64,000 bases of DNA from Gemmatimonadales bacterium (GTDB lineage Bacteria; Gemmatimonadota; Gemmatimonadetes; Gemmatimonadales; GWC2-71-9). The first letter of the stretch is position 1. Each line of letters begins with the position of its first letter. The DNA lies in assembly GCA_041580775.1 (NCBI GenBank), contig JBFGDF010000001.1, positions 22,219-86,218 of the forward strand. The letters are read 5' to 3'. The position numbers and the translations under genes were made by a program. Of the stretch, positions 3,180-38,999 are shown in pieces. The notes below the pieces were generated by a model. That model was not told the origin of the DNA. It worked only from the letters and a program-made list of their open reading frames with translations, and made no database searches.

Positions 3180-5840
<2,661 letters not shown>

Positions 5841-5927
5841 CCGAATCCCTGCGCGGGGGTACGCTGCAACATACTAGGGCGCGCCGGGAGACCGCGCCAT
5901 CCGGGTCGCGGGACGCAGCGCACCCGC

Positions 5928-6500
5928 CTACCCGTTGTAGATCTCGCCTCCCCGCTCCCGGTACAACGCGAGCACCGCCGCCGCTTCCGCTCCCAGCACG
6001 CCGCGCACGGACTCGACCCCGCGATCGCGGAGATACTGGTAGGACTCGGGAAACACGGGGCCCTCGTCGAACCCGACCCGGCGCGCCTCGGCGCGACCGG
6101 CGCCGGCGACGATGCGCCGGACTCCGGACCACAGGGCGCCGCCCAGACACATGGCGCAGGGGTCACACGAGGTCACGAGCTCGTGGGCCGGCCCGTCGAA
6201 AAGCGCGAGCGAGTAGTGGCCCAGCCGGCGCTCGGCCAGCATGAGCGCCACCATCTCGGCGTGCAACATCGAGTTCCGGTCGCGGGTGACCAGGTTCACG
6301 CCGACGGCCACCAGCCGGCCCGTGTCCCGCTCGAACACCGCGGCCCCGAACGGACCACCGGTGGCGTGCTCGACGTTGGCTCGTGCCAGCTGGATCGCGA
6401 GCCGCATCCGGTCCTCGACATCCCCGTAGGCGCGGTCCCACGCCACAGCCGACGCCACCCAATCCGGAAGGTGAATCCGGATCTCGTGGGGGGGCGGCAT
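5928..6500 (-). CDS. CDA-fold zinc deaminase (guanine/nucleoside deaminase-like)
   Basis: HAEMVAL and PCAMCLGA zinc motifs. The ORF-track ORF extends to 6824, but its first 108 residues are Arg-rich junk. I place the start at ATG 6500 (MPPPHEIRIHLPDW). Confidence 0.7.
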   Translation of the reverse strand: MPPPHEIRIHLPDWVASAVAWDRAYGDVEDRMRLAIQLARANVEHATGGPFGAAVFERDTGRLVAVGVNLVTRDRNSMLHAEMVALMLAERRLGHYSLALFDGPAHELVTSCDPCAMCLGGALWSGVRRIVAGAGRAEARRVGFDEGPVFPESYQYLRDRGVESVRGVLGAEAAAVLALYRERGGEIYNG

Positions 6501-6774
6501 CTTCACGCGACGACCAGCGGCCGTCGGGCCTGTAGGCTGCGCATGTCGGAAGGCCACTCCAAGGGCTCGACCGTAAGATGGAGCGAAGCGCACCCCGGGA
6601 CCAGCGCGCGGGCCCTGATTGTCGACCGCGGCCCGCTTACGCGCAAGAGCGCGCGTGCCCCATCGTCGGGTGGAGGGCGCTGGGTGCTGCCACAGCGTCA
6701 CACTCGCCAGACGGGGCAACGCGGCCCCTCGATGACGTCGAACCAGCGGTCGAACGGCGCCATGGGCTGGGCCG

Positions 6775-15067: not shown

Positions 15068-15162
15068 GGCAGGCCCGCACCGGGCGGCGAGCCGCTGCGA
15101 CGGGCTTGCTCCGCCACCCGGTGATTTCCTACCTTGGGGCGTCCGCCTCTCCGAGGACCGGC

Positions 15163-16200
15163 GTGCGCATCTCGATCGTCTTCGACACCCCGTGGACCGA
15201 CTGGACGCCGGACGATCATCGTCGCCAGATGGAGCGGGAGCTCGCGGGCAAGGAAGCCCACGAGCCCGAGATGGAGTACCAGGTGGCGGGCGCCCTCCTC
15301 GAGAACGGGCACGAGGTCCAGTTGGTGGGCATTCACGCCGACCCGCGCGTCCTGCCGGATCACTGTGACGCGTGGAAGCCGGACGTGGTGGTCAACTGCG
15401 CCGAGTCGTTTCTCGGCGACGGTGCGCTGGATCACGTGTGCGCCACGCTGCTGGAAGTGGGCAAGTACCGCTACACCGGCTCGTCGCCGCTGGCCCTGCA
15501 AGTGACCCGGGACAAGGCGATGAGCAAGAAGATCCTCGCCTACCACGGCATCAAGGTCCCGGCCTTCGTGATGTATCGGACGCGTGAGCGCGTCACCGAG
15601 CCGCCACCCCTCGCGTTCCCATTGTTCGTGAAGCCGCTCGCGTCCGACGCCTCGGCGGGTATCGCGCAAGCGTCAGTGGTGAACGACGTGCCGGCGCTGG
15701 CGGAACGGGTGGCCTTCGTGCACGAGCGCTTCCGCCAGCCGGCAATCGCCGAGCAGTTCATCCAGGGCCGCGAGCTGTATGCGGGCATTCTCGGCAACGA
15801 CGAACGGCTCGCGGTGCTGCCGCTGACGGAGCTGGTGTTCGACAAGGAGAAGAACGAGCCGGAGGAGCGGATCGCGACACAGGCCGCCAAGTGGACCGAG
15901 TCGTACCGCAAGCGGCGGGGCATCCGCACGGTGCTCGCGCGGCCCGTGTCGGCGGTCGCCCGGGAGCGGATCGAGGCGACCTGCCGTGCGGCGGGGCACG
16001 CGCTCTGGCTCCGGGACTACGCGCGGATCGACATCCGGCTCACCGACGACGACGAGGTGTGGGTGCTCGAGGCGAACGCGAACCCGTTCATCAGCAAGGG
16101 CCACGAGATGGCCAACGCGGCGGCCAAAGCGGGGCTTCCCTACCCGCGATTCGTCGAGCGGATCGTCGAGGAGGCCGTCGCCCGGCACGAGCGGGCGTAG
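15163..16200 (+). CDS. ATP-grasp enzyme, D-alanine--D-alanine ligase family
   Basis: VRISIVFD... N-terminal Rossmann-like part, then RDKAMSKKILAYHGIKVP, PLFVKPLASDASAGI and EANANPF. GAGGA lies 5 nt upstream of GTG 15163. Confidence 0.7.
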   Translation: MRISIVFDTPWTDWTPDDHRRQMERELAGKEAHEPEMEYQVAGALLENGHEVQLVGIHADPRVLPDHCDAWKPDVVVNCAESFLGDGALDHVCATLLEVGKYRYTGSSPLALQVTRDKAMSKKILAYHGIKVPAFVMYRTRERVTEPPPLAFPLFVKPLASDASAGIAQASVVNDVPALAERVAFVHERFRQPAIAEQFIQGRELYAGILGNDERLAVLPLTELVFDKEKNEPEERIATQAAKWTESYRKRRGIRTVLARPVSAVARERIEATCRAAGHALWLRDYARIDIRLTDDDEVWVLEANANPFISKGHEMANAAAKAGLPYPRFVERIVEEAVARHERA

Positions 16201-16213
16201 GGCGGCGAACCGC

Positions 16214-17824
16214 CTATCCCCGGAGCAGCCCCGGTGGCGCCGCATGGGGCAGCGCCGGCCGCGCGGAGGCCACCAGCTCACGGGCGACGATCGCCAGCCG
16301 ATCGATGAGCCGCTCCAACTCCGCGATGCGGCGCTTGGTGGCGTAGTGATACGAGGTCCGCGCCACAGCGAACGTGACGCCCAGCCAGAGCGGGAGAATC
16401 ACCGGGATGGCCACCTCGGCCACACCCAGCGCACCGACGAGGATGCCGATGATCGGGCCCGCGCCGCCGCCACCCATCCCCCCCCCGATCCCCCCATAGA
16501 TGCCGCCGATCAGGTTGCCGAGGTTCTCCTGCACGGCGATACGCGTGCGTCCGCCGCGCACCGACACGATCACTTCCAGCGTGCGCCCACCGCCGCTCCG
16601 GGGCGTCGCGGTCCAGGTGAACGACCGGCCGAGCTGGCTCACCTGCCCCACGTTGCGGAGCTCGCGCCGGATCTCGTCCACCAGCACGGGGAAGTCCAGC
16701 TCCTCGACCTCGCCGTCCACGATGCGTTCGTACGCGAGCCGGGTGGGGCCGCCGAGCCAGCGGTTCCGCCGCGGCGGGTCCGGGGGCGGCGCCGGGGACG
16801 TGTGACGCGCGTCCATGGATTGCGCCGCCGAGTGGACGAGGTCCACGGGAATCCCCACTTCCGCCGCGAGCGCCTCGACCCCGCCGATCGTGAGCGCGCC
16901 GCTGGCGGTGGGGTTCGTGGCCTCGAGCTCGGCCGCGCGTCGCACGATCTCCCGTACCTCCTGCTCGGCGAACCGGCGGCGCGGGGTGGCGACACCCCGC
17001 AACTCATCGAGCAGGGCCCCCGGCGTGGGGGTGCGCTGGTCGTGGCGGATCGCGAGGCCGCGCACCAGTGCCCCCTCGATGGTCGGGCCGGCCTGCGCGA
17101 GCCGCGCGCGGTGGGCAGGCGTCGCCTCCAGAAGGCGGCCGACCCGCACCGCCTCCTCAGTGGGCCAGCGTCCGGGCGCTTCCCCTACGAGCATCTCGTA
17201 GACCAGAACCGCCAGGCTGTAGACGTCCGTTCGCTCATCGAGATCCATGAGGCCCGCCGCCTGCTCGGGGCTCATGTAGCCCGGCGTGCCCAACGGGAAT
17301 CCCGTGCGGGTGAGGTTGGCCCCACCGGCCGTGCTGATGGCCTTGGCAATGCCGAAGTCCGCCACCACGGGATGCCCCTGCGAGAAGAGGATGTTCTCGG
17401 GCTTGATGTCGCGATGGAAGAAGCCCATGCGGTGGGCGTAGGTCAGCGCGTCGGCCACCGGCCCGGCCACCGCCAGCGCCTCGTCGGGCTCCAGCCGGCG
17501 CCCACCCTCGAGCCGCTGGCGCAACGAGCCGCCCTCGATGAACGGCATCACGTAGTAGAGGAAGCCGCGCGCCTCACCCGAGACGTACAGCGCGAGGATG
17601 TGCGGGTGGTTGAGCCGGGCCGCGATCTGGATCTCTTTGAGGAACCGCTCGGCGCCGAGCGAGGCGGCCAGGTCGGGCCGGAGCACCTTCATCGCCACCT
17701 CGCGCTGATGCTTGGCATCCCACGCGAGGTAGACTGTCGCCATGCCGCCGCGACCGAGCACCCGCTTCAGGGTGTCGCGATCGGCGACGGCGGCAACGAG
17801 GTCGGGCGGAAGGTCGGACGCCAT
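16214..17824 (-). CDS. Hanks-type Ser/Thr protein kinase with a C-terminal Gly-rich membrane segment
   Basis: GRGGMATVYLAWD, VAMKVL, HRDIKPEN, DFGIA and SPEQ. C-terminal GGIYGGIGGGMGGGGAGPIIGILVGALGVAEVAIPVILPLWL. Real start is ATG 17824 (MASDLPP). Confidence 0.85.
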   Translation of the reverse strand: MASDLPPDLVAAVADRDTLKRVLGRGGMATVYLAWDAKHQREVAMKVLRPDLAASLGAERFLKEIQIAARLNHPHILALYVSGEARGFLYYVMPFIEGGSLRQRLEGGRRLEPDEALAVAGPVADALTYAHRMGFFHRDIKPENILFSQGHPVVADFGIAKAISTAGGANLTRTGFPLGTPGYMSPEQAAGLMDLDERTDVYSLAVLVYEMLVGEAPGRWPTEEAVRVGRLLEATPAHRARLAQAGPTIEGALVRGLAIRHDQRTPTPGALLDELRGVATPRRRFAEQEVREIVRRAAELEATNPTASGALTIGGVEALAAEVGIPVDLVHSAAQSMDARHTSPAPPPDPPRRNRWLGGPTRLAYERIVDGEVEELDFPVLVDEIRRELRNVGQVSQLGRSFTWTATPRSGGGRTLEVIVSVRGGRTRIAVQENLGNLIGGIYGGIGGGMGGGGAGPIIGILVGALGVAEVAIPVILPLWLGVTFAVARTSYHYATKRRIAELERLIDRLAIVARELVASARPALPHAAPPGLLRG

Positions 17825-17861
17825 GGGGCGGGAATATAGGGCGGAACGACGGAACGACGGA
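17825..17861 (-). promoter_or_regulatory. Leaderless-type promoter: TCCGTC (17861-17856) - 17 nt - TATATT (17838-17833) - 8 nt - ATG
   Basis: The minus strand reads TCCGTC-N17-CCCTATATTCCCGCCCC-ATG. The same architecture, with a 16/18-identical core block, recurs at 22094-22130. Confidence 0.5.
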
Positions 17862-17874
17862 ATGGCGGAACGGA
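17843..17874. repeat. Four tandem 8-mers GGAACGAC GGAACGAC GGAATGGC GGAACGGA
   Basis: Read directly from the sequence. Forms a TTCCG-periodic C/T-rich tract on the minus (coding) strand upstream of the kinase -10 box. Confidence 0.9.
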
Positions 17875-17876
17875 AA

Positions 17877-17908
17877 GGTTGGGCGGTTGGGCGGTTGGGC
17901 GGTTGGGC
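17877..17908. repeat. Four perfect tandem copies of GGTTGGGC (G-arm)
   Basis: Read directly from the sequence. Fits the G3-N5-G3-N5-G3-N5-G3 quadruplex pattern and is nearly complementary to the array at 17923-17957. Confidence 0.95.
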
Positions 17909-17922
17909 GGTGCGCTGATTCT

Positions 17923-17957
17923 CCACCCGCCCATCCGCCCATCCGCCCATCCGCCCG
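17923..17957. repeat. CCACCCGC followed by three perfect CCATCCGC copies (C-arm), abutting the stop codon at 17958
   Basis: Read directly from the sequence. The reverse complement GCGGATGG differs from GGTTGGGC-type pairing by one position per unit. Confidence 0.95.
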
Positions 17958-18947
17958 TTAGAACCGCCCTTCCCGCACCTGGCCCTTCCCGAGCCCGCGG
18001 CGGAGGTCGATCACCGTCTGAGGCGTGAGGCTCTCGTTCTCCGGCAGCGGGACGTCGCCCTTCGCCTTCCCCATGGCCACGACGCTCTTCAGGCGCTGGA
18101 GCACGCCCGCGCCCTCGACGGCGGTTTCCCCCTCAGCGTAGTACTCGAACCAGGGGATGTCGGCCCGTGCGTAGTCGCGCGCGGTGAGGGGCGCGGTAGG
18201 GGGCTCCTCTCCGGTGATCGCGCGCCACACCAGCGAGTTGGCCAGGTGGACGAAGCAGCGGTGCCCGTGGTCGAGGTCCCAGACGTCGAGCGGCCGATGA
18301 TCGCGATAGATCTCCTGCCGCATCCGTCCTCCGGGCGCAAGCCCCATGTCGAAGGACTTCGCGAACAGAGCACGGCCCAGCGAGGCACCGGTGACGGACG
18401 CCCCCTCGATCGGCGGCCGGTAATGCTGCCGCTTGATGGGGTACACGTGGAGCTGGAGCCCGCCGTGCTCGGCGGCGCCGGTGATCTGCTCTTCCGCGGA
18501 GTAGCCGGCACCGAGCGGCATGGCCACGAACTGCCGGATTATGCCCTTCTCCACGCAGAAGCCGTCCAGCCAAGGCTGCCCGGGTGTCACCGCGTAGTCC
18601 TGCGGCCCCCGGTGCAGGCCCGGTCGGTAGGCTTCCCCGGTGACGGCGTTGATCTTGCCAGCGGCGATCTTCACGGCGCACGGGTACCCGCCATGGAAGT
18701 TGATCCACAGGGCTTCCGACTGGTACATCGGCAGCAGCACGCCGCCGTGCTCGAGCCAGCGCGCCGGCACCCGCTCGGCGAAATCGTCCACGTGACGGAG
18801 TGGGAATCGGCCCAGGCCCGCCGGCAGCGGGTACTCGCGATCGTCGTCGGGGATGCGCAGCGTGCGCTGGAACTCGATGCGCAGCTCGGCGTCCGCGTGG
18901 ACGTCCGGGAACCGGACGAGCAATTGGTCCTTCTGCAGTTCGATCAT
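17958..18947 (-). CDS. Hypothetical cytoplasmic protein, 329 aa, family not recognised
   Basis: Clean 329-aa ORF with no TM segment or signal peptide. Distinctive blocks are RTLRIPDDDREYPLPAGLGRFPL, MYQSEALWINF, KIAAGKINAVTGE and GIIRQFVAMPLGAGYSAEEQITG. Lies 15 nt downstream of the XRE gene. Confidence 0.7.
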   Translation of the reverse strand: MIELQKDQLLVRFPDVHADAELRIEFQRTLRIPDDDREYPLPAGLGRFPLRHVDDFAERVPARWLEHGGVLLPMYQSEALWINFHGGYPCAVKIAAGKINAVTGEAYRPGLHRGPQDYAVTPGQPWLDGFCVEKGIIRQFVAMPLGAGYSAEEQITGAAEHGGLQLHVYPIKRQHYRPPIEGASVTGASLGRALFAKSFDMGLAPGGRMRQEIYRDHRPLDVWDLDHGHRCFVHLANSLVWRAITGEEPPTAPLTARDYARADIPWFEYYAEGETAVEGAGVLQRLKSVVAMGKAKGDVPLPENESLTPQTVIDLRRGLGKGQVREGRF

Positions 18948-18962
18948 GGGCGCCTCCTCGGC

Positions 18963-19319
18963 TTACCACTTGCCGTCGCGCACGTCGCGCACCAAGCGCA
19001 GGACGGCGCGGTCGGGCATGTCCTTGAGCTCCCGGATCAGCGTGGCGAACAGCTCGGGCCGCTTGCGGATGGCCGCCTGCAGATCCGAGGAGACCTTGCC
19101 CGCAAGGGCGAGGAGCACGTCGGGATCCTCGCCGAGCTCGCCGGCCAAGGCCACGATCTTGGCCTCCGAGGGCGGCGGCGTCTCGTCCCGTTCGACCTTG
19201 CTCAGGAACGAGGGCTCGACGCCGATCCGCTGGGCGACCTGCCGGAGGGAGTAGCGGTCGTTGTGCGCGCGCAGTGCCTCGCGGCGGGTCCGGACGTAGT
19301 CACCAAAGCCGGTGGTCAC
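18963..19319 (-). CDS. XRE-family helix-turn-helix transcriptional regulator
   Basis: 118 aa with a GTG start. HTH region YSLRQVAQRIGVEPSFLSKVERDE. Confidence 0.75.
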   Translation of the reverse strand: MTTGFGDYVRTRREALRAHNDRYSLRQVAQRIGVEPSFLSKVERDETPPPSEAKIVALAGELGEDPDVLLALAGKVSSDLQAAIRKRPELFATLIRELKDMPDRAVLRLVRDVRDGKW

Positions 19320-19325
19320 ATGTGT

Positions 19326-19354
19326 AGTATGTACTACTTAGTACACGCTGTCAA
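19326..19354 (-). promoter_or_regulatory. Promoter with embedded palindromic operator for the XRE operon
   Basis: The minus strand reads TTGACA (19354-19349), a 17-nt spacer, CATACT (19331-19326), then GTG about 7 nt downstream. The spacer contains the perfect palindrome GTACTA-AG-TAGTAC (19331-19344). AT-rich island in GC-rich DNA. Confidence 0.55.
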
Positions 19355-19437
19355 GGGTTGGGGGGCGGACGGGCGGATGGCAGTCCCGTGCGTCGGTGTC
19401 GCTCTACCACCCTCCGCTCACCCGCTCACCCGCCCTT
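19355..19437. repeat. G-arm / loop / C-arm repeat hairpin element abutting the stop codon at 19438
   Basis: G-arm GGGTTGGGGGGCGGACGGGCGGATGG (19355-19380). C-arm CCACCCTCCGCTCACCCGCTCACCCGCCC (19407-19435), which contains two tandem CTCACCCG copies. Same layout and shared GGTTGGG / CCATCCGCCC cores as 17877-17957. Confidence 0.7.
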
Positions 19438-20670
19438 TCACCCGAAGAACAGATACGCGATGAAGATCCCGGCCACGACCGCGGTGAAATCGGCGATCAG
19501 CCCGCACGTCACCGCGTGTCGGGTCTTCCGCACACCCACCGACCCGAAGTAGAGCGCGATGATGTAGAACGTGGTGTCGGTGGACCCCTGGAACGTGCTC
19601 GCCAGCCGACCGACGAACGAGTCCGCCCCGTACGTCTGCATGGCATCCACCATCATCCCCCGCGCCCCGCTCCCGCTCAGCGGCTTCATCAGCGCCGTGG
19701 GCAGCGCCGGGATGAAGTCCGTGTTGAGGCCGACCGCACCGAACGCCTTGCCGATCCCCGCCACCAGGAGCTCCATCGTCCCGGACGCGCGAAACACGCC
19801 GATGGCCACGAGGATGGCCACGAGGTAGGGGATGATCTTGACCGCGACCGCGAACCCGTCCTTGGCGCCTTCGATGAACGCCTCGTACACGTTCACCCGC
19901 CGGACCATGGCCAGCGCGATGAATGCGGCGATGACGCCGAACAGCGTCACGTTGGCCACCACGTTCGAGACCGTCTCCACCTGCGCCTGTGGCAGCCGCG
20001 AGAAATAGCCGAGTGTGGCGGCGACCAGCCCGGTGAGTCCGAGCAGATAGGCCAGGACCACCTTGTCGAACAGATTGATCCGCTGCACGACGGCCACGGC
20101 GACCAGCCCCGCCACCGTGGAGAAGAACGTCGTCAGCAGGATGGGCAGGAAGATGTCGGACGGGTTGGCGGCGCCCAGCTGTGCGCGGTAGACCATGATG
20201 CTGATGGGAATCACCGTGAGACCCGACGTATTCAGCACCAGGAACATGATCTGGGCGTTGGACGCCGTGTCCTCGCTGGGATTCAGTTCCTGCAGCTCCT
20301 GCATGGCCTTGAGGCCCAGCGGCGTCGCGGCGTTATCGAGGCCCAGCATGTTCGCCGCGAAATTCATGATGATCGAGCCGTGCACCGGATGATCCCGCGG
20401 GACTTCCGGAAACAACCGTCGGAAGAACGGGCGCACGACCGTCGCGAGCGCGTTGATCGCCCCGCCCTTCTCGCCAACCTTCATCAGGCCCAGCCACAGC
20501 GTGAGCACGCCGGTGAGGCCGAGCGCGATCTCGAACCCCACCTTGGCCATCTCGAACGTGCTGTTGACCATGGCCGTGAAGACCTGGGTATCGCCGAAGA
20601 AGACCAGCTTGACGAGGCCCACGACCAGCGCAACGAGGAAGAAGGCGATCCAGATGTAGTTGAGGACCAT
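19438..20670 (-). CDS. Fused SpmA/SpmB-like nucleoside-recognition (Gate) domain membrane protein
   Basis: The real start MVLNYIWIAFFLVALVVGLVKL (ATG 20670) matches typical SpmA N-termini. Polytopic membrane protein of 410 aa. NAATPLGLKAMQELQELNP block. Confidence 0.7.
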   Translation of the reverse strand: MVLNYIWIAFFLVALVVGLVKLVFFGDTQVFTAMVNSTFEMAKVGFEIALGLTGVLTLWLGLMKVGEKGGAINALATVVRPFFRRLFPEVPRDHPVHGSIIMNFAANMLGLDNAATPLGLKAMQELQELNPSEDTASNAQIMFLVLNTSGLTVIPISIMVYRAQLGAANPSDIFLPILLTTFFSTVAGLVAVAVVQRINLFDKVVLAYLLGLTGLVAATLGYFSRLPQAQVETVSNVVANVTLFGVIAAFIALAMVRRVNVYEAFIEGAKDGFAVAVKIIPYLVAILVAIGVFRASGTMELLVAGIGKAFGAVGLNTDFIPALPTALMKPLSGSGARGMMVDAMQTYGADSFVGRLASTFQGSTDTTFYIIALYFGSVGVRKTRHAVTCGLIADFTAVVAGIFIAYLFFG

Positions 20671-20675
20671 GGAAC

Positions 20676-21386
20676 TCAGCTCGCGAGGGTGGGATCGGCG
20701 TGCGTGAGCAACTCCACCAGCACGGGCACGTGCGCGCGCACCAAGGCATCCGTGGACGCGAGGGGAAACTCGTAGGTGACGACCGCGAGGCCCTGCTCTC
20801 CGCCCCACGTGCCAAACGAGCCGGGCGTGGGGTAACCGATGTCCCGCACGAGCGGCAGGCCGGTGCGCGCCGCCAACCACTGCCCCAGCGCACTCGCATT
20901 GGCGTCATCGATGCAGGCGAGCGGTGCGTGTAGCGCGATCACGGTTTCGGGCCGTAACTCGGCAACCAGTCGCATCAGCGCCTGCGTCTCGGGCTCCGAC
21001 CCGGCATGCGCGCCCGGGCTCAGCCGCACGTCCTGCGGGTCGTCCAGCGTGGAGCGATGCGCCACCGGCTTTGACTGCCAGTCACGGGTGGGGAAGTTGC
21101 GGTTGAGCTCCACCCCGCGCGCGTTTCCCCGCGTGCCGCGGATCAGGCCGTCGGGATTGGCTGCGAGCACGACTGCGGCGTGAGGCGATGGCGCGGGCAG
21201 CTGACGGAGGGCGCGGGAGAGCGCGAACGTCGTTTCCGCTTCTTCCCCGTGAATCCCGGCAAAGAGCAACAGCGTGCACGGCCCCGCGGGACGCCACACC
21301 TCCAGCGGCACGCCCAAGTGGGACCGGCCGTATGTGTGCGGTTCCCAGAGGATCGTGCCCCAGTCCTGCCGCGGTCGGAGGCTCAT
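20676..21386 (-). CDS. MpaA-like M14 zinc carboxypeptidase (murein peptide amidase family)
   Basis: FAGIHGEEAETT and LAANPDGLIRGTRGNARGVELNRNF blocks. ATG 21386 overlaps the upstream stop (ATGA). Confidence 0.7.
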   Translation of the reverse strand: MSLRPRQDWGTILWEPHTYGRSHLGVPLEVWRPAGPCTLLLFAGIHGEEAETTFALSRALRQLPAPSPHAAVVLAANPDGLIRGTRGNARGVELNRNFPTRDWQSKPVAHRSTLDDPQDVRLSPGAHAGSEPETQALMRLVAELRPETVIALHAPLACIDDANASALGQWLAARTGLPLVRDIGYPTPGSFGTWGGEQGLAVVTYEFPLASTDALVRAHVPVLVELLTHADPTLAS

Positions 21387-22093
21387 GCGGTCGCCTGGTT
21401 CGTGTTGGTGACGAAACGAACGACGATCTCGTCGAGATGGGCCAGCACCACGCTCTTGAGGGCGAGGTCGGCGCCGCGGACCGTGTCGCGCAGCACGTCC
21501 GTGGTGAGGTGCCGCCCGTACGCGGCGGCGGTCGGCCCGTGGCTCAGGTGCCATCGCTCGGGCGCGACCCCGCCGCGATCGCGGTCGTACGGTCGGAAGA
21601 AGCCGTGCGCCGCGCCGGCGGCGATCCGCATGTCGAGCCATGCGTGCAGCGGGCCGAACATCCCGCCGGGATTCACCTCGGCGGGAATGAGCTCGATGTC
21701 GTAGCCCGCGGGCTGGGCAGCCCGGTCGAAGACGTCCAGATCCGTCCCCCAGTGATGGCGCGACGCGCCCGGCAGCGCCGACCAGCGCAGGATCGCAAAC
21801 ACCAGGTCCTTGGCGCTCAGGGTCGCGATGTCGAGGGGCGCCGCGTCACTGTCGAGCACGGCGCGCTGCCCGGTCGCCTTGCGGTTCCAGATGGACAGTT
21901 GCTGCGCGAAGCTGCGGAACCCACTCAGGATCTGGAGATCGAATCCGGCCGCGTGCGCGTCCCGCTGCAAGCGGCGGAATGGCTCGACCACGTCCTGATG
22001 CACCGGGACGCCCAGTGACGCGGCGACGATTGGTGCACAGAGATGCTGCTCCGTCTGACCGGTCAGCACGGCGGGCGGCGGGCGGGGCGGCAT
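21383..22093 (-). CDS. M15-family D-Ala-D-Ala / LD-carboxypeptidase (VanY/LdcB-like)
   Basis: SGFRSFAQQ, SRHHWGTDLD and ERWHLSH blocks, the usual M15B metal ligands. Confidence 0.7.
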   Translation of the reverse strand: MPPRPPPAVLTGQTEQHLCAPIVAASLGVPVHQDVVEPFRRLQRDAHAAGFDLQILSGFRSFAQQLSIWNRKATGQRAVLDSDAAPLDIATLSAKDLVFAILRWSALPGASRHHWGTDLDVFDRAAQPAGYDIELIPAEVNPGGMFGPLHAWLDMRIAAGAAHGFFRPYDRDRGGVAPERWHLSHGPTAAAYGRHLTTDVLRDTVRGADLALKSVVLAHLDEIVVRFVTNTNQATA

Positions 22094-22130
22094 GGTGCGG
22101 GAATATAGGGTGGAAGGACGGACGGACGGA
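22094..22130 (-). promoter_or_regulatory. Leaderless-type promoter: TCCGTC (22130-22125) - 17 nt - TATATT (22107-22102) - 8 nt - ATG
   Basis: The minus strand reads TCCGTC-N17-CCCTATATTCCCGCACC-ATG, a near copy of the kinase promoter at 17825-17861. Confidence 0.5.
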
Positions 22131-22159
22131 AAGACGGACGGACAGACGCAGGGACGGTC
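22116..22159. repeat. GGAC-type tetranucleotide tract (about 11 units: GGAC, GGAA, AGAC, GGTC variants)
   Basis: Read directly from the sequence. C/T-rich on the coding strand, between the RES toxin stop (22173) and the -10 box. Confidence 0.85.
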
Positions 22160-22172
22160 GGTGGGATCGTCA

Positions 22173-22670
22173 TCAAGCAGGGGGAATGGTCTCTCGGCCG
22201 GAGCCGACGGCGAGATCGATCCCCGCCGCCAGGCCGTCCTGATAGACCATCAGGTTGATCGCGCCGGCGAGGGCGGCCGACGGGGCGAGCAGGCCGACGG
22301 CCCCGGCCCGCCGCGCGGCGTCGCTCAGCGTGCGACACAGCTCGATCGCGGCGTCGGTGTCGCGGGTCAAGTCGTCGAGGCGAACGCGAAACCGCTTCCG
22401 CTCCGCCCGGTCGGTGAGATCGAGCACCGGCTCGACGCGGTGCACGTCGATGCTCACGAGCTCGCGCGGGGCGAGCCGGATCCCGGGTGCCCACCCCGCC
22501 ACCAGTTTCCGGTATTCCGCGATCGCGCCCTCGCGGGTCGTCGAGGTATAGAGGCAGCCGTACCGGCCGGCGCGGTTCCACCGGCCGCGCGCTCTGACGA
22601 TGTAGGCGAAGTTGAGGGGAAACCCGCCGGCCGGCACGTGACGCCACACGCGACCGGCCCAGCTGATCAC
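22173..22670 (-). CDS. RES-domain toxin
   Basis: GRWNRAGRYGCLYTS...REGAIAEY...LLAPSAA supplies the R-E-S signature. GTG 22670 overlaps the antitoxin stop (GTGA). The longer ORF-track version (to 22979) is antisense of the antitoxin. Confidence 0.8.
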   Translation of the reverse strand: MISWAGRVWRHVPAGGFPLNFAYIVRARGRWNRAGRYGCLYTSTTREGAIAEYRKLVAGWAPGIRLAPRELVSIDVHRVEPVLDLTDRAERKRFRVRLDDLTRDTDAAIELCRTLSDAARRAGAVGLLAPSAALAGAINLMVYQDGLAAGIDLAVGSGRETIPPA

Positions 22671-23086
22671 GTGTAGGCGCCCGACTCGAGGGTCGCGAGC
22701 ACCTCGATGACCGCCGCGATGTGGCCGCGTGTGATCTCGCCCAGGGGCGAGCGGCCACGGAGGGCCGCCGATGGGGCGTGCGCCCACTCGAGCGCGGCGG
22801 TCCAGTCGGGAAACACCGTCTCGAGCAGATGCCGTGTCTCGCCCAGTTCCTCCAGGCGCCGGCGGTGCGCCGGTGACGGCGCCACCGCTCCGTCGGCCCA
22901 GCGGGCGACCGTGCGGGCCGACGCGCCGACCGCCGTGGCCACTTCCGCCAGGCTCAGCCCGAGGCGGGCGCGGGCCCACGCCACCGCGGCCGCGGCCTGG
23001 CGGGCCTTGAGGGCGGTATGCGCTCCTTCGGCCCTGCTGGGAACCGCGTCAATTCCTACCGCGTTCATTGGCAACGACTTAGCCAC
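22667..23086 (-). CDS. Xre-type antitoxin with C-terminal DUF2384-like toxin-binding domain
   Basis: HTH LSLAEVATAVGASARTVARWADG. C-terminal RGRSPLGEITRGHIAAVIEVLATLESGAY. GAGGAG (23092-23097) lies 5 nt upstream of GTG 23086. Confidence 0.8.
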   Translation of the reverse strand: MAKSLPMNAVGIDAVPSRAEGAHTALKARQAAAAVAWARARLGLSLAEVATAVGASARTVARWADGAVAPSPAHRRRLEELGETRHLLETVFPDWTAALEWAHAPSAALRGRSPLGEITRGHIAAVIEVLATLESGAYT

Positions 23087-23103: not shown

Positions 23104-23140
23104 AATGACATATTCTATGTCATTATATATGACATTGCAA
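23104..23140 (-). promoter_or_regulatory. Toxin-antitoxin promoter TTGCAA-17 nt-TAGAAT with three ATGTCAT/ATGACAT operator half-sites
   Basis: -35 at 23135-23140 and -10 at 23112-23117 on the minus strand. Plus-strand motifs AATGACAT (23104-23111), ATGTCATT (23117-23124) and ATGACATT (23129-23136). The most AT-rich spot in the window. Confidence 0.6.
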
Positions 23141-32735: not shown

Positions 32736-33467
32736 ATGCCACGACGCCCATTCCTGACCTCGATTCTGGTCGGCGCCGCGCTCCTGAGCTGCGGCGAGAG
32801 CGCCGGACCCCGGCTGGACGGACCGTCGCTGAGCCGGCACCCGCGGTACCTGGCCTGGGGCGGAGACGCGCCCCTCGTGATTCGCGCGATCGGCACGAGC
32901 GTGGCCACCCGCGGGACGGGCACCGGCACGGGCAGCGGCGAGCTGCCGCACGGATTCTCGGCCTCCCTGCAATTGAGCGCGTACCAGGTCGGCTTCTGGG
33001 CCGTGAAAGGCGAAGCACGGGGTGTGCAGATCGACTATGAGACGTGCGTTGCTTGGGAGGGGGAGCTCTGCACCGCCCGGACCTGGCATCCCTATCTGCT
33101 GCTTGACGTGCCGGCCAGCGCGCTGGCGCAGTGGCCAAACGGCAGCGCGATCGCCACCGGGGACTCCGTCTTCATCGAGCTGACCGTCGATCCGCAGAGC
33201 ATGGTCGTCGAGCTCGAGCCGTCCGGTCTGCGGTTCGGCGCGGGCGGGGCCGCACTCCAGATGTACTACACCGGCGCTCACGGGGATTACGACGGCGATG
33301 GTGACGCCGACACCGTCGATGGCGACATCGAGCGGCAGTGGATGGGGATGTTCTACCAGGCCGCGCCGACGGAGCCATGGGTGGCCATGGGCAGCCAGCA
33401 CTCGGTCTCCGGCCGCTGGTTCACGGCCTGGCTCGAGCACTTTTCGGGCTACGCCATCGCGTGGTAG
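32736..33467 (+). CDS. Lipoprotein, paralog C
   Basis: MPRRPFLTSILVGAALLSC lipobox. AYQVGFWAV, PNGSAIATGDSVFIELTVD, GDYDGDGDADTVDGD and a C-terminal EHFSGYAIAW identical to paralog A. Confidence 0.75.
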   Translation: MPRRPFLTSILVGAALLSCGESAGPRLDGPSLSRHPRYLAWGGDAPLVIRAIGTSVATRGTGTGTGSGELPHGFSASLQLSAYQVGFWAVKGEARGVQIDYETCVAWEGELCTARTWHPYLLLDVPASALAQWPNGSAIATGDSVFIELTVDPQSMVVELEPSGLRFGAGGAALQMYYTGAHGDYDGDGDADTVDGDIERQWMGMFYQAAPTEPWVAMGSQHSVSGRWFTAWLEHFSGYAIAW

Positions 33468-38656: not shown

Positions 38657-38999
38657 GGTTGGGCCTCCCCGTGGACCCCGGCAGAGAGCCGTAGGCTTCC
38701 TAGGGCCCTGGAGTACGGAGCGGGCATGCGCGAAGATCGCGGAACGGGCGCGTTCGGCGCGCCGCCGACATTCTCGGTGGTGGTGCCGAGAGCCGAATGC
38801 GGTCTCGCTGGCAGGCCAGGTCGCGAAACAACGGCGGATGGGCGTGCCTCGGCGAGACAGCCGGCAGCTCTCAAGGCGACAGGCGAACATGGCCCCAGCG
38901 GGTGGCGCCCGCAAGCCCAAGAGCGCAGGGGGGCGAACCGGTGCCTCTGCGGCCCTCGGGGGTTGGCCAATGCCATCGCGATGTACTACATCAGACCAT

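Follow-up and report, generated by a model that had tools for sequence, protein, structure and literature searches.

In the HipBA operon, a small gene for an XRE-family helix-turn-helix (HTH) protein precedes the gene for a larger effector, and palindromic operators overlap the promoter. The XRE protein, the antitoxin HipB, has an unstructured tail with a universally conserved C-terminal tryptophan (W88), which has been seen in a surface pocket of HipA (PMC3376134). Here we analyse a cassette of the same layout in a stretch of 64,000 nucleotides from a Gemmatimonadales bacterium (assembly GCA_041580775.1, contig JBFGDF010000001.1, positions 22,219 to 86,218), which is referred to below as the window and whose own numbering is used throughout. 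At 17958-19354 the minus strand, to which all elements of the cassette belong, encodes an XRE-family repressor of 118 residues, the tail of which likewise ends in a strictly conserved tryptophan, followed by a protein of 329 residues from a large uncharacterised family (hereafter the payload). At a probability of roughly 0.4, we favour the explanation that this cassette is a HipBA-like conflict module that represses itself and encodes a payload of uncharacterised kind.

The likeness to described systems is partial. Unlike the effector of HipBA, the payload gives no HipA match in Pfam and shows no kinase motifs, and so is not a HipA kinase; it also carries the C-terminal tail motif itself, which HipA does not. 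Its conservation across phyla is also far higher than is usual for toxin–antitoxin pairs. A second comparison is offered by the CapH-CapP and DdrO-IrrE systems. CapH requires its C-terminal domain for oligomerisation and DNA binding, and the XRE protein of the cassette, which matches the capH model of the PADLOC database, appears to have a similar layout of an HTH and a C-terminal oligomerisation domain; the downstream gene is likewise probably repressed from a site in the promoter. In contrast to these systems, the cassette has no CapP/IrrE (M78-like) metallopeptidase partner, its downstream "operon" is a single gene of an undescribed family, and the RDGxW tail of its XRE protein is not a described feature of CapH. 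The Xre-RES pairs (ParST/MbcTA) share with the cassette the order of an XRE-type gene before an effector gene, but the payload is not a RES protein and the XRE protein lacks the toxin-binding domain Xre_MbcA_ParS_C. Because the HipA kinase, the CapP/IrrE peptidase and RES are all absent, the cassette lies outside the three systems. By analogy, the layout would work like that of HipBA or of an Xre–effector cassette, with a repressor that resembles CapH and DdrO.

Layout, promoter and operator of the cassette

The XRE gene (18963-19319) begins with GTG and is followed, after exactly 15 nt and on the same strand, by the payload gene (17958-18947), as determined from the open reading frames and by direct reading of the sequence. 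The intergenic spacer, GCCGAGGAGGCGCCC (18948-18962), contains GAGGAGG, the Shine-Dalgarno sequence of the payload gene. In front of the XRE gene, a -35 hexamer TTGACA (19349-19354) and a -10 hexamer CATACT (19326-19331), separated by a spacer of 17 nt, form a promoter with 10 of 12 matches to a sigma-70-like site. This is the sole site of its kind in 17700-19600, for which shuffled sequence yields 0.2. The two genes are adjacent, co-oriented and served by one promoter, and a hairpin follows the second gene, as in the two-gene layout of toxin–antitoxin systems. The cassette is a self-contained two-gene operon with its own promoter, comprising a repressor and a payload. A two-gene unit with a 15-nt gap and its own promoter had already been described in an earlier reading of this DNA made from the letters alone (the sequence-only reading), and both features are confirmed.

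The XRE protein matches the Pfam families HTH_31 (3.8e-9) and HTH_3 (3.5e-6), and consists of an HTH at residues 5-69 and a conserved helical C-terminal region. The match to the PADLOC capH model (9.6e-10) extends over residues 1-112 and hence nearly the whole protein.

The promoter spacer, the -10 hexamer and the predicted transcription start (+1) are occupied by a 25-bp operator-like element, GTGTACTAAGTAGTACATACTACAC (19322-19346), with three half-sites of the form TGTAsTA. The sequence-only reading had proposed as operator a perfect palindrome in the spacer, GTACTA-AG-TAGTAC (19331-19344). This 6-2-6 palindrome is present, and the operator region of spacer and -10 hexamer is conserved across phyla, but the palindrome makes up only part of the element; a second perfect 6-2-6 palindrome, GTAGTA-CA-TACTAC (19324-19337), overlaps the first. 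The operator pattern is single-copy in the 64-kb window, against a chance expectation of 0.11 matches.

For comparison we used the best 80 of at least 594 loci found in a scan with one genome per species. Alignment of the upstream DNA revealed the 25-bp three-half-site element (consensus GTGTACTGTGTAGTATATACTACAC) in front of the XRE gene in 72 of 73 loci, which represent many phyla, always in the same architecture: TTGACA, 2-3 nt, GTGTACTGTGTAGTATATACTACAC with the -10 hexamer at its centre, and the start codon. The position of TTGACA is kept in most of these 72 loci, and the -10 hexamer reads TATACT, TATAGT or CATACT. Distant relatives on phage contigs have an altered palindrome sequence at an unchanged position. 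That groups as far apart as Gemmatimonadota and Gammaproteobacteria retain the element, and do so at the promoter of a gene encoding a DNA-binding protein, argues strongly, on comparative grounds, for autorepression. The XRE protein very likely represses its own promoter, as the sequence-only reading had supposed, and we infer that it does so by binding to the 25-bp element.

The distance from the -10 hexamer to the start codon is 4-8 nt in most loci, most commonly 6 nt, which is where transcription is predicted to start. In the window, G19319 of the GTG start codon sits 6 nt past the -10 hexamer. Because the GTG start coincides with the predicted transcription start, the xre message is probably leaderless; four loci have a short leader with AGGAGG instead. 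The minus strand of the window also reads ATGTGA at 19316-19321, where an ATG start is paired with a TGA stop, in one-base overlap with the GTG start codon of the XRE gene. This ATG-TGA/GTG arrangement is common to the loci L003 and L084, while a plain ATG stands at the predicted +1 in most other loci.

Elsewhere in the window, the half-site ATGTACTAC occurs alone at 38981-38989, not at 38983-38991 where the sequence-only reading had placed it, and there are further lone copies at 33261 and 46126. The half-site at 38981-38989 is not evidence of a second operator. An operator at 38981 was ruled out, as the half-site there stands alone and the two other lone copies are located in GC-rich, coding-looking sequence (ATG TAC TAC) resembling Met-Tyr-Tyr codons. 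An 11-mer, GATGTACTACA, which also reads as Met-Tyr-Tyr codons, is present in GC-rich sequence at both 33260-33270 and 38980-38990. This repeat accounts for the half-site reported earlier and is probably a coincidence.

Pairing of the two genes and their C-terminal tails

Homologues of the payload in the best 80 loci are 55-72% identical to the window protein and stem from Gemmatimonadota, Planctomycetota, Myxococcota, Acidobacteriota, Krumholzibacteriota, Desulfobacterota, Gammaproteobacteria, Kiritimatiellia, Poribacteria and other groups. In 77 of the 80 loci, an XRE homologue (60-83% identical) is located directly upstream on the same strand; in one of the three remaining loci the contig end cuts the locus. 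The gap between the two genes is usually 7-60 nt. Euzebya (actinobacterial) and Bosea (alphaproteobacterial) plasmids carry the same pairing at 38-50% identity, and a search started from the XRE protein gave the same picture. Among cultured bacteria, carriers are Sedimenticola selenatireducens DSM 17993, Stieleria tagensis, Aeoliella straminimaris, Euzebya pacifica (WP_114594674.1 / WP_114594673.1) and Bosea sp. RAC05 (WP_069052717.1 / WP_069052716.1), among others. The XRE partner, about whose constancy the sequence-only reading had asked, is almost always present. Clustering of all flanking open reading frames in the related loci yielded no third conserved gene next to the pair; the neighbours vary from locus to locus and are mostly ordinary, such as efflux pumps, transporters, kinases and oxidoreductases. 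On a Miltoncostaea oceani plasmid the gene order is reversed: the large protein, ending in VRDGSW, comes first, and the second gene, which overlaps the stop codon of the large gene, encodes a different HTH protein of 129 residues without the tail.

Sequence divergence within and around the cassette differs between loci. The payload gene of L084, a syntenic close relative (5782-6771 in that locus), is 97-99% identical to that of the window at the nucleotide level, with a synonymous divergence (dS) of 0.04, while the flanks are 85-93% identical with dS values of 0.10-0.40 (0.40 for the kinase gene), with sharp transitions at either end of the gene. The opposite holds for the pair L010/L012, whose flanks are less divergent than the cassette. 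Both patterns fit, and suggest, an exchange of cassette alleles by recombination.

The two proteins share a C-terminal tail, which the sequence-only reading had missed. The XRE protein of the window ends in VRDGKW (codons at 18966-18983) and the payload in VREGRF (codons at 17961-17978). All 72 XRE partners (72/72) end in RDGxW, and 61 of the 80 large proteins end in VR[DE]Gx[FW]; a looser pattern covers 70 of the 80. The last residue is nearly always tryptophan in the repressor and phenylalanine in the payload. Distant payloads and those of phages end in V-x-x-G-x-W with or without an XRE gene (Streptomyces VDDGDW, Miltoncostaea VRDGSW and many phage contigs). Because this ending occurs in payloads irrespective of the XRE gene, we take the tail to be an ancestral trait of the payload family, of which the repressor seems to carry a copy.

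The tail of the XRE protein is retained at an XRE identity of 37-50% and with a diverged operator. It is also retained where the partner is a long variant without a terminal tail of its own, which points to an encounter of the repressor tail with the payload domain and not with the payload tail. Two joint changes, affecting position -4 of both tails, were observed: both tails lack arginine in Euzebya (VADGDW and VTDGTW), and both contain -EG- in Bosea (IDEGEW and VSEGVI). The near-identity of the tails hints that the two proteins touch each other or share a partner, and, as judged from these comparisons, a physical coupling of the two proteins via the repressor tail is likely. Other readings of the tail, as a clamp-binding motif, an SSB tail or an HbYX motif, were discarded since the motif does not fit. 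A "Rosetta-stone" fusion of XRE protein and payload does not exist among 391 family proteins.

The payload family and its variants

The payload belongs to a family of more than 8,000 homologues in a 90%-clustered collection, all of which are annotated as "hypothetical" and none of which has a Pfam domain. A family profile search of a 50%-clustered protein library gave at least 4,667 clusters at E <= 1e-3 and 1,278 clusters at E <= 1e-30. The window protein has no match in Pfam-A 2025, NCBIfam 20.0 or PHROGs v4, with a score over the family threshold as the criterion, and none in PADLOC-DB v2.0.0, a 2023 library with later-described defence systems outside its coverage. Its best Pfam match, to DUF4235 (E = 0.18), is below threshold, and no weak Pfam family common to 78 diverse members was found. 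Neither a single sequence nor a profile matched a sequence in the PDB; a match to enoyl-CoA hydratase in the PDB profile search (E = 1.9) was dismissed as spurious.

Structure prediction with AlphaFold2 depended on the input alignment. From 31 close homologues, the predicted local distance difference test (pLDDT) score was 43, while 78 diverse sequences, with representatives of the 50% clusters added, gave a confident model (pLDDT 91.3; predicted template-modelling score, pTM, 0.89). The beta-rich model comprises about 14 strands and a small number of short helices, and residues 182-197 form a disordered loop; its confidence is lower over the last 10-20 residues (pLDDT about 62 for residues 321-329). 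A Foldseek search of the PDB with this model yielded a best E value of 0.18 and TM-scores <0.2. The search for a structural relative that the sequence-only reading had proposed was thus carried out, and no PDB match below E = 0.1 emerged. Its statement that no described type can be assigned holds for all these family libraries, for PDB sequences and for Foldseek relatives in the PDB. Among predicted viral structures, Foldseek matched proteins of giant viruses, namely a Harvfovirus protein (E = 1e-21) and a Hyperionvirus "ubiquitin-like domain-containing protein".

Residues conserved throughout the family are Arg28, Thr29, Arg31, Asp34, Glu78, Gln124, Asp128, Gln139, Glu152, Gln154, Gln165 and Gln211, together with several tryptophan, glycine and proline residues. 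The sequence blocks singled out in the sequence-only reading (RTLRIPDD and others) correspond to conserved motifs of the family. No cysteine, histidine or serine is universally conserved across the family. C131, C231 and H234, considered as catalytic residues, were rejected because they are invariant only in Gemmatimonadota-like sequences and not family-wide. The second gene showed neither HExxH-like conserved residues nor a peptidase match. No transmembrane-like segment was found in the 329-residue protein, in agreement with the sequence-only reading, and the protein is predicted to be cytosolic.

Multidomain relatives invariably have the family domain at the N-terminus, with TPR-like, transmembrane, VWA or kinase parts after it. 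Among the long relatives, some bear a VWA domain at the C-terminus, some a protein kinase ahead of and an FGE-sulfatase domain behind the family domain, and others Sel1 repeats or DUF932. The most elaborate architecture is that of a transcript of the euglenid Entosiphon sulcatum (P0258), which has an N-terminal ubiquitin, a ubiquitin-like insert and a C-terminal RING domain. The insert (residues 384-498) ends in LRLRGG, is located exactly at the position of the disordered loop 182-197 of the bacterial protein and immediately precedes the conserved MG..AGG strand. Identity between the Entosiphon domain and its bacterial counterparts is about 50%, and a search with the Entosiphon domain returned bacterial hypothetical proteins only and no named relative. 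In another member, an N-terminal segment is UBA-like by eye only.

Several variants are found in the neighbourhood of defence or mobile genes. In L132, an XRE gene and a gene for a 534-residue variant are directly followed by a RES gene, then by WG-repeat and RNase T genes, with a PIN/Phd pair nearby. An island with an integrase and DUF3987 continues with an HTH gene and a 1,162-residue variant. A 670-residue variant is followed by genes for a kinase, AbiH, AbiEi, an FHA-kinase, PP2C and an AAA+ protein. Family variants also occur in contigs of jumbo phages and giant viruses. In the IMG/VR set of viral contigs, 33 loci contain a member of the family, many on contigs of about 190-620 kb, and the XRE gene is present in 15 of the 33. 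The deposited phage Rctr197k contains a homologue without an XRE gene.

Bacterial gasdermin operons are protease-associated effector operons, and one family member offers a parallel to them. On the Bradyrhizobium barranii conjugative plasmid pBb1S5b, a tail-less homologue heads an operon with genes for an M12 peptidase, a caspase-family protein and a trypsin-like protein of 1,788 residues; a C-terminal extension of the family that could be inhibitory is a further likeness. The cassette differs in that it contains no protease gene, and only this one distant homologue has protease neighbours. No Pfam match to gasdermin was obtained, and no gasdermin entry is present among the 50 Foldseek PDB matches listed, all of which have E > 0.1. 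The surrounding region of the plasmid, at 62-90 kb, is a peptidase-dense island with S8, three trypsin-like, caspase-family and two M12 peptidases, and also holds a non-specific endonuclease, Ku and copies of IS1380. A metagenome scan with the Bradyrhizobium homologue returned one short contig only.

The resemblance to toxin–antitoxin or defence modules seen in the sequence-only reading is supported by variants located beside RES, AbiH/AbiEi, integrase with DUF3987 or peptidases, and by the conflict-type fusions. A classical toxin is made less likely by the canonical pairs, which are found in an ordinary context and are highly conserved, and by the common orphan homologues. Judging from these sequence contexts, the module likely belongs to conflict systems of the toxin–antitoxin, abortive-infection or defence type.

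Surroundings in the window and weighing of explanations

The payload gene is directly followed, after its stop codon, by a long hairpin of a G-rich and a C-rich arm (17877-17956) with a folding energy of -67.8 kcal/mol (z = -7.8). The 30-nt arms are 90% complementary and contain the tandem octamers GGTTGGGC (x4.4) and CCATCCGC (x4.2), and no T-run is present; the hairpin is likely a terminator or insulator. Microrna-like Rfam matches on it lay well under the gathering scores and were regarded as spurious. A second hairpin (19358-19443), in the interval between the stop codon of the Gate-domain gene and the promoter of the cassette downstream, has similar octamers and a stability no better than that of shuffled sequence (z = -1.3). 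We consider it a boundary feature with only putative membership in the cassette. Of the hairpins that the sequence-only reading had described on both sides, the downstream one is therefore strong, but the upstream one equals shuffles. Intergenic arrays of 8-nt tandem repeats are present at 17842-17956, 19358-19443 and 22112-22161, with CGGAACGA (x3.9) as a further unit besides the two octamers above. The G-rich and C-rich arrays pair to form very stable hairpins without a T-run, and similar octamer or tetramer arrays occur at other gene ends.

The neighbouring genes in the window encode a Ser/Thr kinase, a Gate-domain transporter, an M14 peptidase, VanY and a Ddl-like ATP-grasp enzyme. Cell-wall-peptide genes thus flank the cassette over 15106-22093 (the Ddl-like ATP-grasp enzyme, the M14 carboxypeptidase-like protein and the VanY D-Ala-D-Ala carboxypeptidase), a neighbourhood that, with the kinase and the Gate-domain transporter, L084 shares and other phyla lack. 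L084 contains, between the Gate-domain gene and the XRE promoter, 579 bp (4782-5361 in that locus) with an unrelated gene for 136 residues, to which correspond 53 bp of repeat hairpin only in the window (19369-19422). This gene was ruled out as a third component of the cassette, as it is absent from the window and its product is lipoprotein- or membrane-protein-like. At 22176-23086, on the minus strand and 2.8 kb from the cassette, lies a genuine pair of an Xre/MbcA/ParS-type antitoxin (Xre_MbcA_ParS_C, 2e-4) and a RES-domain toxin (RES, 1.6e-15), with an AT-rich repeat just upstream of it (23105-23136). The sequence-only reading had drawn attention to the proximity of such a pair, at about 3 kb. 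The pair is real, but its proximity is not conserved among the related loci.

In the explanation that we favour, the XRE protein, with its HTH and its CapH/DdrO-like, probably oligomerising C-terminal domain, would bind the three half-sites and keep both genes nearly silent. The xre message would start at its own start codon, and the second gene would be translated from its strong Shine-Dalgarno sequence. The payload would be a cytosolic, beta-rich protein of a family that elsewhere serves as a module of biological-conflict systems. The invariant RDGxW tail, as a copy of the V-x-x-G-x-W/F tail of the payload, would dock on the conserved domain of the payload and, in the manner of an antitoxin tail, keep the payload inactive while linking its level to repression. 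Once the repressor is lost or titrated, transcription and payload would be released together. Several observations weigh against this explanation. The conserved tryptophan of HipB matters for degradation by Lon and not for the affinity to HipA (PMC3376134). Since the payload tail is modelled with only moderate confidence, its docking in cis is not predicted, and the payload has no match in PADLOC. The canonical pairs, including that of the window, are located among ordinary chromosomal genes at native GC content (0.69-0.71 in the cassette, as in its surroundings), which also argues against a classical toxin. An identity of 55-68% between phyla is unusual for toxins or immune effectors. Finally, homologues without an XRE partner are common (18 of the 33 viral loci, and Streptomyces and Bradyrhizobium plasmids), so that the payload appears to be tolerated without the XRE repressor, which speaks against obligate toxicity.

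Much of the same evidence would suit a stress-inducible accessory enzyme or binding protein, for which the XRE protein would serve solely as the repressor, and the tails as a common degradation or recognition tag (for Lon or Clp); if they are read by one host factor, both proteins would turn over together. The degree of identity between phyla, clear purifying selection (ratios of non-synonymous to synonymous divergence, dN/dS, of 0.14 and 0.36), housekeeping neighbours, the native GC content, stable synteny with a close relative, the many genomes that hold the payload without the XRE gene and the Lon degron in the tryptophan-bearing tail of HipB are all in line with this explanation, and the set of conserved polar residues, Glu, Asp, Gln and Arg but neither Cys nor His, is one that might be expected of a hydrolase or a binding groove. 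We nevertheless consider it doubtful, as the family is distributed patchily across phyla with no conserved metabolic neighbours, its variants occur in defence or mobile contexts and in conflict-type fusions, the motif V-R-D/E-G-x-W/F is far more specific than known protease tags, and the XRE tail does not vary between host phyla. The shared tails and the invariance of that of the XRE protein could also be explained if the 329-residue protein were a sensor or anti-repressor that, on binding a signal, would capture the XRE tail and so relieve repression, in a regulatory switch with its real targets elsewhere in the genome. The N-terminal position of the domain in all multidomain relatives, as often in sensor modules, and the RES toxin after the pair in L132, which could be the actual effector, agree with such a role. 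It is an unlikely one, however: the operator occurs once only in 64 kb, no other gene is conserved beside the pair, the strong conservation of a self-regulating protein of some 330 residues would be hard to explain, and orphan homologues have no XRE protein as a target. Improbable, too, is a damage-inducible unit of the CapH/DdrO type, in which an unlinked CapP/IrrE-like metallopeptidase would, upon DNA damage, cut the XRE protein near its C-terminus and thereby induce a damage- or phage-response factor of 329 residues. The PADLOC match and the presumed arrangement of HTH and oligomerising C-terminal domain, as in CapH, which is cut by CapP near its C-terminus, are consistent with it, but no such peptidase gene is present in or next to the cassette, in the window or in related loci, CapH and CapP are normally adjacent, and the matching tail of the payload would be left unexplained.

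Beyond the HipBA-like conflict module, a broader proposal is possible, if tentative: the payload family may represent an undescribed ancient domain, perhaps with a new fold, that is used by conflict systems in bacteria, jumbo phages, giant viruses and protists, where it is joined to ubiquitin, UBA and RING domains, and that in bacteria the repressor controls by tail mimicry, with RDGxW competing with, or substituting for, the domain's own tail at a tail-binding site. If so, this would be a new way to couple a transcription factor to an effector, and possibly a module for the recognition of C-termini that is ancestral to the substrate receptors of eukaryotic E3 enzymes.

Taken together, the cassette contains a member of an unnamed family with thousands of members, no model in the family libraries and no solved relative. 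The payload is conserved across phyla to a degree similar to that of core enzymes and travels with its own repressor and operator; even if it were an ordinary enzyme, it would be a widespread one that has never been named. With their conservation from Gemmatimonadota to Gammaproteobacteria and Actinomycetota, the leaderless layout, the promoter and the operator offer an experimental handle, and the shared tails suggest a specific, testable mechanism of protein–protein interaction. If the domain acts in conflict systems, it would constitute a new class of effector or sensor and would link bacterial modules to the ubiquitin and RING proteins of protists and giant viruses.

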